Assembly: GCA_964477585.1 (NCBI GenBank)
Contig: CAYZHU010000001.1
Coordinates: forward strand, 7,086-42,973
Direction: 5' to 3'
Source of the DNA: an uncultured bacterium
Lineage (GTDB): Bacteria > Chlamydiota > Chlamydiia > Chlamydiales > SM23-39
DNA length: 35,888 nt
Shown: positions 24,229 to 28,238 of the stretch, piece after piece
How positions within the stretch are numbered: position 1 is the first letter of the stretch
How the letters are laid out: the number at the start of each line of letters is the position of its first letter
Program-made: the position numbers and the translations under genes
Notes under the pieces: model-generated
Databases searched by the model: none
What the model was told of the DNA's origin: nothing
Seen by the model: the letters and a program-made list of their open reading frames with translations, nothing else

Positions 24229-24302
24229 TGGGGCAACCTGGACTTGAACCAGGGACCGACGGGTTATGAGTCCGCTGCTCTAACCAACTGAGCTATTGCC
24301 CC
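24229..24302 (-). tRNA. tRNA with CAU anticodon (elongator Met or Ile2/lysidine type), copy 1
   Basis: The reverse complement folds as a cloverleaf: acceptor GGGGCAA/TTGCCCC, D arm GCTC-AGTTGGTTA-GAGC, anticodon arm GCGGA-CTCATAA-CCCGT, T arm CCTGG-TTCAAGT-CCAGG, discriminator A. No encoded CCA. 74 nt. Confidence 0.9.
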
Positions 24303-24313
24303 TCAAGGAGATA

Positions 24314-24342
24314 AAGATAATAGATTGGGACAGAGGATGCAA
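24314..24342 (-). promoter_or_regulatory. candidate promoter of tRNA copy 1
   Basis: On the minus strand: TTGCAT (24342-24337), 17 nt, TATCTT (24319-24314), ending 11 nt before the tRNA 5' end. The -35 sits in a 12-mer shared with copy 2. Confidence 0.35.
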
Positions 24343-24417
24343 GGATTTCATTGAGCACTAAACTTGTGTGTTGCTGTTGTATTGACGCTTGCCATTGTTA
24401 AGGACCTTTTCTACAAA

Positions 24418-24455
24418 GGGGACAGCCTGGACTTGATACGCCCGGCGGTAAGGGA
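24418..24455 (-). other. degenerate tRNA 3'-half fragment (possible att-like remnant or decayed tRNA copy)
   Basis: GGGGACAGCCTGGACTTGA (plus strand) compares with GGGGCAACCTGGACTTGA at the 3' end of both tRNA genes, sharing an exact 11-mer CCTGGACTTGA in the same orientation. Downstream similarity decays and no T-stem complement is left. Confidence 0.4.
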
Positions 24456-24540
24456 AGTTTGGAATTTAGATTACAGATTTATACTATATGTAGTATAGCT
24501 CTTTTCATGGGCGCAACCCTAGATTTTAAGGAAAGATAGA

Positions 24541-25149
24541 TTGTTTAGAAAGTTTATTGGATGCATCTATCCCTTATTAGGAATTTGTATTGGTTTGCCC
24601 AATTTGCATGCTAAAGAAGTTTTAATAGAAGCTAAGGCTGCTTATTTTCTTCCGATGCACCATAAATTCCGAGACATATATTCTGAAGGAGGGATATATG
24701 GGGGTGAATTTACTTGGCAAATGCGTCAAAAACTTTATGGATGGATCAGTGCAGATTATTTCTCTAAAAAAGGATTTTCAATCGGAGAGCATGATCCAAC
24801 TAAGATCACCATGGTTCCCCTAGGCGCTGGACTCAAACTTAAATTTCCCTTCAAACGGACCGTAGATCTTTATATAGGAGCAGGTGTGCTTGGTACCTAT
24901 TTGCATATGAGAGATCATTCCCCCTTTGTGATACCAAGCAGCTCTAAATGGGGTGTTGGAGGGATTGCAAAAGTTGGAGCCATTTGCAAAATAGGCGAGC
25001 ATTTTTTTATCGATCTATTTACCAATTACACTTATACAAAAATTGATTTTGATAACGCGGATCAAGAGATAGTAATTCGACAGAATGCAAATCTAAGCAA
25101 TTGCTCCTTTGGCGCAGGTATGGGGTATCGTTTTGGATGTCCAAATTAG
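24541..25149 (+). CDS. small outer-membrane beta-barrel protein (OmpW/OmpA-barrel-like)
   Basis: TTG start preceded by AAGGAAAG. Signal peptide FRKFIGCIYPLLGICIGLPNLHA-KE. Alternating hydrophobic beta-strand pattern with a C-terminal ...GAGMGYRF aromatic motif close to the end. Confidence 0.6.
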   Translation: MFRKFIGCIYPLLGICIGLPNLHAKEVLIEAKAAYFLPMHHKFRDIYSEGGIYGGEFTWQMRQKLYGWISADYFSKKGFSIGEHDPTKITMVPLGAGLKLKFPFKRTVDLYIGAGVLGTYLHMRDHSPFVIPSSSKWGVGGIAKVGAICKIGEHFFIDLFTNYTYTKIDFDNADQEIVIRQNANLSNCSFGAGMGYRFGCPN

Positions 25150-25177
25150 TCAGTTCGTATTGGCTGACTGATCTCTT

Positions 25178-28086
25178 TCAGGGACACTCATCGTTATCTC
25201 TTATTGTAATACTTACCGCATCACCGATCAGTCCAAAGGAATTCACCGCCTGAACAAAATAAACATCAGTATTCTTGTTTCTATTATGATCTTTATACTC
25301 TAGGCTTGTGGAAGGAACAAAAGCAATCTGTGTTCCATTGCGAAAAATTTGATAACCTGTGATACAGGAACTCGAACTAGCTGTCCATGATATAACGTGG
25401 ATATGATCTGTCTGCGTCAGAAATTTATTTTTTTTCGTGCAGCCGAAAATGTTTACCGGAGGCAATGGAATAGGCAGGAGTGAAAAATTAACAAATGTTG
25501 TTTGACTACTCATAACGGTAGCAGGAGAGCTCCCAAAGACATAATGGTTCTTTCTTGCTGTTACTGTATAACTGCCAGCTGCAATGGTATCTATGGAATA
25601 ATTTCCATTTGCATCTGTTAAACTAAAACCAACTACTGAGGACCCATCCGTTACCAAGATAAATGCGCCTGGGACCGGGCCGCCTGTACATTCATCTGTC
25701 ACTTCTCCTGCAATGGTCCCAGGAGTGGAATCAAGTGCGAAATTAGCAACCGTTGTTGCGCCGGCCATAACAGTCTCTGTCGAAAATGCTGACTCAAAAC
25801 CCTGGGCGATAGCAAGGACGGTATAATTACCTGGGGCTAAATTAGATATGGTGTAAGTTCCATTGACATCGGTTAAAGCAAAATCAATTAAAACGCTTCC
25901 TTGAAAGACAGCTACAGTAGCATCTGGAATGGGATCTGTAGTTATGGCGTCCGTTACTGTACCAGAAATAGCTCCTGGATTATCGGTTAAAGTAAAATCT
26001 ACAATGGTAGTCTGATTAGAAACGACTGTAGCATTTGTTGTCTGACTTTGAAAATCCGAGGCTATGACAGTCACTGTATAAGTATCAGGCTCTAAGTCAG
26101 GGATATTATAATTGCCGCTTGGATCAGTGATTGCCGTAGCAATTATAACAAATTCATTACGCACTTCAATCGTTGCGCCAGGGATAGGAGTTGGCCCAGC
26201 AGTAGAGACGTTACCGGAGATCATTCCAGGGCTCACTGCTAAAGCAAAATTAACAATTGTTGTATTACTAGTAGTAACGGTGGCTCCAACGGCAGAGTTG
26301 TCAAAATTCGGGGCGCTTGCAATAACAATATAATTTCCGGGAGCCAAATCATTGATCGAATAATTACCATTTGCATCTGTTAAAGCAGTGCCTATAAGGG
26401 TGAAATTGGAAAGAACCAAAATGGTAGCTCCAGGAATTGGAGCCGCATTAGTTTCATTTGTTACAGTACCTGAAATTGTTCCCGGGTTAAGTTGCAAAGC
26501 AAAGTCGACAGTTGTCGTCATATTTCCGACTACACTTGCGCCTTGAGCTGCAGCTTGATAAATGGTTCCGGTTCGAGCAATAACAGTGTATTGGCCGGGC
26601 ATTAAATCAGGAATTGAATATTGGCCATTTACATCGGTCAATGCTTTTGCAATAAAGGTTCGGCCGCTAAATACAGACACAGTAGCTCCCTCGATAGGAT
26701 CCGTCGTTATGGCATCTGTCACTGTTCCTGAAATCGTTCCTGGAGGTGTTAAGAGAGCAAAATTTACGACAGTTGTGGCGCCAGCCGTTACGGTGGCTCC
26801 TACGAACTGTGTTTGAAAAGTGTCTTTGGATGCAGTGACTATGTAATTACCTGGGGAAAGATTTGGAATTTCATAATTGCCATTGGGATCGGTTAAAGCT
26901 GTAGCAAGCACTAATTGATCACTGTAAACATTGATAATTGCTCCCGCGATGGGATTTGTCGATACGGCATTTGTCACTGTGCCTGAAATTGTTCCTGGAG
27001 GAGCCATGAGAGCAAAGTCAATAGTAGTCGTTGCATTTGCCGCAACAGTTGCTGCCTTAATTTGTTGTTGAAACAGATTTGCAGTTGCACGGACTAAATA
27101 GTCGCCTGGAACAAATTCTGAAAGGCTGTACTGCCCATTTGGATCCGTTAAGATCGATGCGATGAGGGTGACGTCTTGAAAAACATCTATGGAAGCGCCA
27201 GAAATAGGATTGCCTGTGGAGACATCCGTTACAGTGCCTGCAATTGTCCCTGGCGGGGTTTCTAAAGCAAAGTCTACTGTTGTTGTGGCACCGCCTGTAA
27301 CGCTAGCTCCCACATTTTTTGTCTGGTATCCATCCGCACTAGCCTCAACAGTGTAACTACCTGGAGCTAAATCTGGAATCGTATAAACTCCACTGCCGTT
27401 AGTATCTGCAAAGCCAACCAATAGAGACCCATTAAAAACCTGAACTAGAGCTCCTACTATTGGATTGGTGGTTAATGCGTCTATTACAGTCCCGGAAATT
27501 GTGCCTGGATTCGATGCCAATGCAAAATCAACTGTTGTGATAACGCCTGCCTGGACGGCAGCGCCCTGGGATTGTGTCTGATATCCAGTAGCTGTAGCGT
27601 TTACATTATAAATACCCGGAGCAAGATTAGGCGCTGAATAGGCTCCGGCGCCGTCAGTAGTCGCAGTCGTGATTAAAGTGAAGGTGTGAAAGATCTCTAC
27701 GGTTGCCCCGAAATGGGTAGAGTAGTTACTGCGTCAGTTACAGTTCCAGATATCGTCCCGCCGTTTGGCACTAATGCAATATCAACAACGTTCGTCGTAC
27801 CATTAGTTATCCTAGCCCCTACTGCTTCTGTTTGATAACCAGACTCGCTGGCGATGATTGTAAAGTTGCCTTGGTTGAGATTAGAGAATACATAAGTTCC
27901 ATCCATCCCTGTTGTGGTGGTTTGTCTTTGCTGATTTCCTTTGGTTGCAACGACCAAGGCTCCTGAAATCGGGAGGCCTGTCAGCGAATCTGTGACAGTG
28001 CCAGCGAAGTTTCCGGAGGCATTTACATATTGAGGCGTGAAGCAAGCGCATAAAAAAAATAGTGCAAGACAAAAAAATCTGTTCAT
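25178..28086 (-). pseudogene. frameshifted adhesin-like surface protein: signal peptide + 10 Ig-like (CarboxypepD_reg/Cna-B-like) repeats + FN3-like C-terminal domain
   Basis: Listed ORFs 27697..28086 (129 aa, carrying the signal peptide) and 25178..27520 (780 aa, no ATG start) are parts of one gene. The 'gap' 27521-27696 translates as a complete extra repeat in the downstream frame. One extra C:G in the CCCC run at 27706-27709 gives a single 969-codon ORF. Confidence 0.8.
25472..28014 (-). repeat. 10 tandem coding repeats of about 255 bp (about 85 aa), diverged
   Basis: Each unit reads (P)PGTISGTVTDaiTtdPI.GAtv.Vf....lia.alTD.nG.Y.ip.LaPGnYtV.a.a..fq.....atV.ag.tT.vnFaL. Units are clearly related at protein level but diverged at DNA level. 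Confidence 0.85.
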
Positions 28087-28165
28087 CCTATTGGCCCTAA
28101 TTAAACTGAGGAGATAACAGACTAAAGATGAGGAAAAAACAAATCAAGAAATTTTTTAAAAAATA

Positions 28166-28238
28166 TGGGGCAACCTGGACTTGAACCAGGGACCGACGGG
28201 TTATGAGTCCGCTGCTCTAACCACTGAGCTATTGCCCC
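28166..28238 (-). tRNA. tRNA with CAU anticodon, copy 2
   Basis: Identical to copy 1 except for a one-nt shorter D loop (AGTGGTTA versus AGTTGGTTA). 73 nt. Confidence 0.9.

Follow-up and report, generated by a model that had tools for sequence, protein, structure and literature searches.

In genomic islands and prophages that tyrosine recombinases integrate at tRNA genes, the cargo follows directly on the 3′ end of an intact tRNA and is bounded on its far side by a further, similarly oriented copy of that 3′ end. K. P. Williams is said to have classed the integration sites of these recombinases in 2002, with anticodon-loop and T-loop sublocations. Integrase-less islets that can be mobilised in cis (cis-mobilisable elements, CIMEs) arise by accretion and deletion beside integrative elements, as in those of the ICESt1 type in Streptococcus thermophilus. 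The closest published precedent within the chlamydial phylum is Pam100G of Protochlamydia amoebophila UWE25, which spans 100 kb, has 17-bp direct repeats and a degenerate internal copy of them, lies at two identical tandem tRNA-Gly genes 88 nucleotides apart and carries tra genes, transposases and phage genes (PMC548262). Here we describe a cassette of about 3.7 kb from an environmental chlamydia, in which two surface-protein genes directly follow a tRNA(CAU) gene (copy 2) and end at a decayed repeat of its 3′ end, with another complete tRNA(CAU) gene (copy 1) beyond. On balance, we lean towards reading the cassette as an integrase-less relic islet at copy 2, bounded by a decayed attR, with copy 1 as a lineage-specific extra tRNA on its far side. 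The stretch analysed, hereafter the window, comprises 35,888 nucleotides (G000:C1:7086–42973) of a metagenome-assembled genome (MAG) of 1.88 Mb in 277 contigs, 79% complete and with 4.3% contamination. Proteins homologous to those of the window come from MAGs labelled Parachlamydiales or Chlamydiales, which identifies the source as an environmental chlamydia.

The locus shares the general layout of tRNA-targeted islands, and differs from them in having no integrase, in a repeat decayed to 16 of 18 positions and in the complete second tRNA beyond that repeat. With Pam100G it has in common the phylum, short direct repeats, a degenerate repeat copy and paired tRNA genes. As opposed to Pam100G, however, it amounts to 3.7 kb at a tRNA-Ile2 gene, encodes two surface proteins and no mobility functions, and has its cargo enclosed by the two tRNA copies instead of following them. 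Small cargo, att-like flanking repeats and the absence of recombination and transfer genes recall CIMEs, and similar islets occur in two relatives (G002 and L099); unlike in CIMEs, no cognate integrase was found in this MAG and the distal repeat is mutated, which makes mobilisation of the cassette in trans doubtful.

ARAGORN and Rfam agree on exactly two tRNA genes in the window, both with anticodon CAU and both on the minus strand, as an initial annotation made from the sequence had proposed. Their only difference is an indel of one base in the D-loop (AGTTGGTTA versus AGTGGTTA), and they have two exact blocks in common, of 60 and of 16 nucleotides. The 3,863 nucleotides between them hold two genes only, a small beta-barrel outer-membrane protein (OMP) gene and a frameshifted repeat-protein gene whose two frames join across the stop into a single gene, again in keeping with the initial description of an OMP and a frameshifted adhesin gene. 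The cassette begins 1 nucleotide past copy 2, with the first start codon 79 nucleotides off, and the cargo directly abuts the intact tRNA 3′ end. From copy 2 to copy 1, the components are as follows.

28166–28238, minus strand: tRNA copy 2 (t2), the proposed attL and the orthologous copy; 73 nucleotides, 69.9 bits.
25178–28086, minus strand: repeat-protein gene of the CarboxypepD_reg/Ig-like type (PF13620), with about 10 repeats, split by a one-base frameshift.
24541–25149, plus strand: small outer-membrane beta-barrel gene, OMP_b-brl (PF13505, E 1.4e-8), convergent with the repeat-protein gene.
24416–24448, minus strand: decayed direct repeat of the tRNA 3′ end, the proposed attR; robust core 24419–24436, the part to 24448 tentative.
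24303–24415, minus strand: spacer of about 113 nucleotides from the decayed repeat to copy 1, with a promoter-like block at 24328–24348.
24229–24302, minus strand: tRNA copy 1 (t1), a full-length extra gene; 74 nucleotides, 69.0 bits.

The far boundary of the cassette is marked by the decayed repeat. Within its core, 24419–24436 on the minus strand, TCAAGTCCAGGCTGTCCC matches the tRNA 3′ end TCAAGTCCAGGTTGCCCC (tRNA positions 55–72) at 16 of 18 positions without a gap, and both mismatches are transitions. The core lies 116 nucleotides 5′ of copy 1 and points the same way. In 100 shuffles of the window, no match to the tRNA 3′ end had three or fewer mismatches, the core is the sole non-tRNA site at that threshold in the whole 1.88-Mb assembly, and its local alignment score of 27–32 lies above the shuffle maximum of 24–25; on these grounds, the fragment is derived from a tRNA and is not a product of chance. 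The initial annotation had placed a tRNA 3′ fragment near copy 1, and that fragment is real, similarly oriented and unique, with the gap in its proposed alignment proving unnecessary; the properly scored alignment that it called for exceeds every shuffle. The repeat may extend to about 33 nucleotides (24416–24448), with CCGCCGGGCGT and ATCAAGTCCAGGCTGTCCCCTT on either side of a 3-nucleotide deletion, according to an nhmmer search with a profile of the repeats of relatives (E 0.26). The stretch 5′ of the core is most similar to the repeat of G002, the closest relative in GTDB (TCCCT--TA--CCGCCGGGC versus TCCCTCATAACCCGCCGGGC), with a score reached in 7 of 1,000 shuffles, uncorrected for 18 comparisons. 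These matches only tentatively suggest an extension beyond 18 nucleotides.

Both tRNA copies have a G1–C72 acceptor end, as read from the sequence, and hence tRNA(CAU) is not an initiator. Searched against all 5,426 complete Escherichia coli genomes, the tRNA is closest to an annotated tRNA-Ile (87.7% identity over positions 8–64) that lies between mug and nfeF, a spot that we take to be the position of ileX. The molecule is therefore best read as a tRNA-Ile2-like species, a probable lysidine-dependent decoder of AUA, and the tRNA-Met label that ARAGORN assigned from the anticodon is overruled by the acceptor end and the E. coli match. It resembles the E. coli tRNA-Ile2 genes ileX and ileY in its CAU anticodon, its non-initiator end and its sequence over positions 8–64, and differs from them in the acceptor stem and in an A31–C39 mismatch conserved in many relatives. 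In the anticodon stem of t1 and t2, this mismatch sits beside a G27–U43 wobble; C39 is kept in most relatives and is replaced in some by U39, which restores the pair with A31.

A third near-identical full copy (t3) lies on another contig of the MAG (C28:9236–9309, minus strand; locus L076), which also carries the only pheS of the bin. It differs by one T-stem change, C49 to T, that gives a G–U pair. Its neighbours are a DUF7790 gene and a 590-residue orphan, and it has no neighbouring genes in common with copy 2. The two nevertheless share a 5′ leader of about 18 nucleotides (CAGCC(T)CCAAAGCAA, score reached in 4 of 1,000 shuffles) and about 10 nucleotides of 3′ flank. A different element links t1 and t2: the promoter-like block at 24328–24348, on the copy 1 side, resembles 28272–28292 upstream of copy 2, with AAATCCTTGCA-TyCTCT-TCC common to both at similar upstream distances (score reached in 2 of 1,000 shuffles); a consensus promoter scan made no call for this block. 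In the D-loop, t2 has the 73-nucleotide form of the nearest relatives, and t1 and t3 have the 74-nucleotide form, which for copy 1 recurs in G015, G004 and G034. The tRNA sequence is 97–100% identical across many genomes of other genera, and fully identical in several, so the near-identity of the three copies is uninformative on their age.

Copy 2 is identified as the ortholog by the genes on its 5′ side, which also sit 5′ of the tRNA in relatives. DUF1207 has this position in 14 of 20 loci of relatives and the MFS transporter in 6 of the 20, divergent from the tRNA as at t2; in L095, L097 and L099, where the MFS protein is 73–76% identical, the MFS–DUF1207 linkage and strands are the same, with a few extra genes interposed. 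The flanks of the two tRNA copies are as follows.

28292–30754, plus strand: MFS transporter (28292–29551) and DUF1207 protein (29576–30754), from Pfam; the conserved flank 5′ of the tRNA.
21582–24173, plus strand: P-type cation ATPase, from Pfam, convergent on copy 1.
About 15.5–24.2 kb: putative wider variable zone, with GNAT, SnoaL, LuxR, aminotransferase, orphan, cupin, TetR and ATPase genes.

The flank 3′ of the tRNA, as opposed to the 5′ flank, differs in every relative examined: in G002, G004, G003 and G007, the genes 3′ of the tRNA are without counterparts in this genome, whereas the 5′ genes have them. The cassette was found at the tRNA locus in none of about 25 loci from relatives, all of them from other genera, and for that reason a true empty site was not seen. 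The synteny comparison that the initial annotation had recommended thus returns no relative with the cassette at this site, and places its gene pair in other contexts. The opposite of the annotation's refuting scenario, in which all relatives would carry both tRNAs and the cassette, was observed. The order includes 154 genomes with a full-length tRNA match, and of these the present one alone has more than one full copy on a contig and three copies in total; two apparent two-copy genomes (G105 and G108) were ruled out, one having overlapping contigs and the other being a mixed bin. In the Logan contig with the closest MFS relative (L101, 78% amino-acid identity), the tRNA by the MFS gene (positions 1–85) matches from position 1 to the anticodon loop only, and is followed by GC-rich divergence at the contig end; either an insertion at this loop or a break in the assembly may account for the divergence.

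On the other side, orthologs of the ATPase lie away from the tRNA in relatives, with no synteny, and the comparison with G002 recovers the ATPase itself only and is uninformative. The ATPase is possibly the first gene of the wider variable zone. An ortholog (67% amino-acid identity) of the ABC transporter at 13717–15489 lies in L097 at 689–2464, 4.8 kb 3′ of the tRNA and on the same strand as it; this gene is a candidate for a conserved outer limit of the variable zone, whose length here would in that case be about 12.7 kb. A 57% homolog of the cupin at 20519–20878 lies in G030 (L078 4962–5462) inside a 1.6-kb islet that runs from tRNA to repeat and also holds an LD-carboxypeptidase gene, and the TetR–cupin–ATPase block 3′ of copy 1 may accordingly be island-derived. 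No further decayed repeats bounding a larger island were found near 20.5 kb or 15.5 kb at four or fewer mismatches.

Throughout the order, the 3′ side of tRNA-Ile2 acts as a hotspot for repeated integration. Of 40 relatives, at least 12 have direct repeats, 17–50 nucleotides long, of the 3′ end of this tRNA. In ten of the 40, copies of its 3′ part measure 39–50 nucleotides; often they share a contig and an orientation with the tRNA and lie 1.6–16 kb downstream of it, and some form tandem arrays. A scan with the last 18 nucleotides adds further repeats, including ones that are short or diverged in G002 (at a distance of 8.3 kb), G023, L095 and L099; the L095 contig is short and stops at its repeat. 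The decayed repeat studied here is shorter than most of these. Their identity blocks mostly begin at the anticodon loop, and their element-side sequences (for example at L072 8253, L056 7025, L064 315, L058 5804 and L060 18446, among others) form at least four families conserved between genera, one of which reads ...TTGG..T.TTGG.TA.A.T.G..TTCCCCCTCC followed by CTCATAAC. Because these element-side arms are distinct, at least four element families use the tRNA, which suggests several related element lineages all targeting tRNA-Ile2(CAU). At nine of the sites, in G011, G005, G036, G038 and G039, a tyrosine integrase (PF00589) follows the tRNA or a repeat on its 3′ side at a distance of up to about 1 kb, some of these integrases being degraded, and the islands of relatives at this tRNA in these respects follow the pattern of known tRNA-targeted islands. 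Integrase-less islets also occur: that of G002 spans 8.3 kb with glycosyltransferases, MatE and a hydrolase, and that of L099 spans 3.2 kb with GH8 and an autotransporter. Several contigs of relatives end within tens to hundreds of bases of the tRNA (G015:C14, G038:C7, G023:C143, G017:C3, G032:C34 and G005:C111), as would fit assemblies that break where an island site is repeated or polymorphic.

The cargo consists of a surface module that is found elsewhere in relatives. The repeat protein has a signal-peptide-like N terminus and at least nine CarboxypepD_reg-type repeats, with PF13620 matching in 8 stretches (E 7e-129; N-terminal open reading frame (ORF) E 1.3e-17), and its gene contains tandem repeats of 255 nucleotides. 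The one-base frameshift lies in a G4/C4 run near 27697–27736 and splits the gene into ORFs of 129 and 780 residues. Homologs of the OMP are patchy among relatives, on other contigs and never at the tRNA locus. Their neighbour in G004 and four other relatives is the repeat protein or a protein with its C-terminal 90–100 residues, the two genes being adjacent in G004:C98. The same convergent pair is present in Logan contigs L107 and L108 (64% and 69% amino-acid identity), where the 3 kb beyond the OMP gene contain neither the tRNA nor the fragment. Since the neighbours in L107 and L108 are unrelated, the pair behaves as a context-changing module. The C-terminal stretch of about 100 residues (window 25178–25500) is without a Pfam match, and this domain adjoins OMP homologs in L086, L088, L091 and L094 even where the repeat region differs. 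From such adjacency, the pairing of the OMP with the C-terminal domain hints at a possible functional partnership, for example anchoring.

Codon usage sets the two genes apart from their flanks. ATA makes up 0.37 of isoleucine codons in the OMP gene and 0.29 in the repeat-protein gene. The genome median is 0.09, and the two genes rank among the highest 2% and 6% of 1,181 ORFs, respectively; the share is 0.06 in the ATPase gene, 0.13 in the MFS gene and 0.00 in the DUF1207 gene. The AUA-rich cassette genes (window 24541–28086) are bracketed by two genes for a probable AUA-decoding tRNA.

No PF00589 domain is present in the window, in line with the initial annotation, which had seen no integrase, and the whole MAG has two Xer-like genes only. 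A tblastn search of the 79%-complete MAG with four island integrases of relatives, aimed at integrase remnants, likewise returned the two Xer-like genes and nothing else. At C226:240–293, the MAG weakly matches (E 0.1) the arm that one repeat family has on its element side; no tRNA-like part comes after this match, and the adjoining gene (C226:378–1469) is homologous to island cargo of G007. The matching stretch may be a scrap of such an element.

An orthologous tRNA, foreign-looking cargo and a same-orientation repeat, at a tRNA that islands of relatives use repeatedly, together make up the signature of a tRNA-targeted island. We infer from it an integrase-mediated insertion and an order of events. 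Copy 2 is the vertically inherited tRNA-Ile2(CAU) gene. Across the order, elements with tyrosine integrases enter this tRNA in its 3′ part; every such event restores the tRNA and puts a direct repeat of the 3′ end beyond the inserted DNA. A segment of about 3.7 kb with the two-gene surface module would have been placed directly 3′ of copy 2, ending at what is now the decayed repeat, and its integrase would have been lost or would never have been part of the cassette piece, either of which would make the cassette an immobile relic, at best mobilisable in trans. An insertion that is old and not under selection would fit the two transitions and probable small deletion in the repeat, as well as the frameshifted cargo gene. 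The lineage would also have amplified its tRNA gene, and the island would have landed in the upstream member of a tandem pair; amplification followed by insertion is the simplest account of copy 1, and is supported by the third copy, the promoter-like block of t1 and t2 and the leader of t2 and t3.

Several observations weigh against this account. The repeat is short and decayed, and neither the E value nor the shuffle count of its extension past 18 nucleotides is significant alone. The model needs a tandem tRNA duplication that is seen in no relative; such a duplication would predict that the sequences 3′ of the fragment and 3′ of copy 1 resemble each other, and an earlier local alignment that suggested it was overturned, with its score reached in 308 of 2,000 shuffles and no significant likeness remaining. 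Beyond the two Xer-like genes, neither integrase nor remnant is found in the window or in an incomplete MAG, and just 79 nucleotides separate copy 2 from the start of the cargo gene. The comparators all belong to other genera, the nearest MFS protein in a collection of 5.8 billion proteins being 78% identical. Composition, which the initial annotation had proposed to profile, gives an ordinary GC content (0.425 versus 0.458 ± 0.026, within 1.3 standard deviations) and a tetranucleotide distance that is the most extreme of 348 windows, a value confounded by the tandem repeats of the cassette and left unused as evidence.

Of the two origins that the initial annotation had envisaged, a remnant island or a product of tRNA-mediated recombination or duplication, the island is favoured by the orthology of copy 2, by the hotspot and by the absence of the cassette elsewhere. 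The origin of the second full tRNA copy is less constrained: it could be a tandem duplicate, be borne by the element or result from homologous recombination. A locus produced solely by paralogous duplication of tRNA-Ile2 and RecA-type recombination or rearrangement between the tRNA repeats, with the fragment as a decayed or truncated further copy and with no site-specific integration, seems to us unlikely. It would accommodate the three full copies and a copy number unique to this genome, the promoter-like block and the leader as traces of DNA-level duplications that took in flanks, the absence of an integrase from the window and MAG, and a gene order near the tRNA that is rearranged on both sides relative to relatives. 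It leaves unexplained why the 3′ end alone of the stump survived, and it sits poorly with the atypical codon usage of the cargo, with a 5′ part of the fragment that is closer to the element-type repeat of G002 than to the resident tRNA, and with a succession of tRNA, cargo and 3′-end repeat that is the integrase signature recurring at this tRNA in relatives. Somewhat less probable again is a full tRNA carried by the element itself, in which a crossover inside the tRNA would have left full tRNAs at both ends, copy 2 as attL and copy 1 as attR, with the fragment as an older scar within the element and the extra tRNA perhaps helping to read the AUA codons of the cargo. Two full-length direct tRNA repeats do bracket the cargo exactly, the cargo is 3–4 times richer in AUA than the genome, and copy 1 has a D-loop variant typical of other genera, with copy 2 keeping that of the nearest relatives. 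Yet none of about 18 repeats in relatives comprises a full tRNA, and their identity blocks start no earlier than the anticodon loop. Among genera, the D-loop variant is homoplastic, and the 74-nucleotide form is present in copy 3 as well, despite flanks shared with copy 2. The fragment would moreover require a separate, ad hoc explanation, and AUA richness also tracks low GC content at third codon positions, at least for the OMP gene.

An artefact of assembly or binning, either a mis-join through the 60-nucleotide exact repeat or an island collapsed between copy 2 and the cassette, with copy 3 possibly from another organism in the bin, is very improbable in our estimate. The number of contigs and the contamination of the MAG leave room for it, as do a tRNA that is 100% identical in other genera, the contig redundancy and bin mixing behind the apparent pairs of G105 and G108, and the many contigs of relatives that break at tRNA-Ile2. 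The exact repeat is just 60 nucleotides, however, below ordinary read length, and the t1 and t2 junctions are resolvable because the copies differ in the D-loop, so that mis-joining through it is unlikely; the contig with copy 3 holds the only pheS of the bin. Whatever the join, tRNA-derived repeats flank the cargo, since fragment, spacer and copy 1 continue from the cassette without a break, as unique sequence. Chance similarity of the fragment to the tRNA has a negligible probability. The initial annotation had fairly cautioned that an 11-mer alone is weak evidence: an exact 11-mer is expected about 0.45 times per window, and a second one, at 9360–9370, does not extend. A 16-of-18 match has a calculated expectation of about 0.0015 per window, and its shuffle results, alignment score and genome-wide uniqueness, so close to a tRNA copy and in its orientation, effectively refute a chance origin.

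Taken alone, the cassette locus, in our preferred reading as a relic islet at copy 2, is an ordinary relic of tRNA-targeted insertion. Its wider meaning lies in tRNA-Ile2(CAU), which is nearly invariant across many environmental chlamydia families and serves as a shared landing pad, both for the element families described above and for integrase-less islets, and this shared use explains why many MAG contigs break at tRNA-Ile2. A bolder possibility, which we consider improbable, is that tRNA–cargo–tRNA forms a self-sufficient module, with extra tRNA-Ile2 copies travelling with AUA-rich acquired surface genes or being kept for them. If true, such a module would bring its own rare-codon decoder, and could loop out or be exchanged by recombination between the 60-nucleotide identical tRNA repeats, with no integrase needed. 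For uncultured intracellular chlamydiae, the landing pad offers a way into the flexible gene pool, by searching downstream of the tRNA until its 3′ end next recurs, and the present locus shows surface modules of an OMP and an Ig-like repeat protein shifting their genomic neighbourhood in these bacteria.

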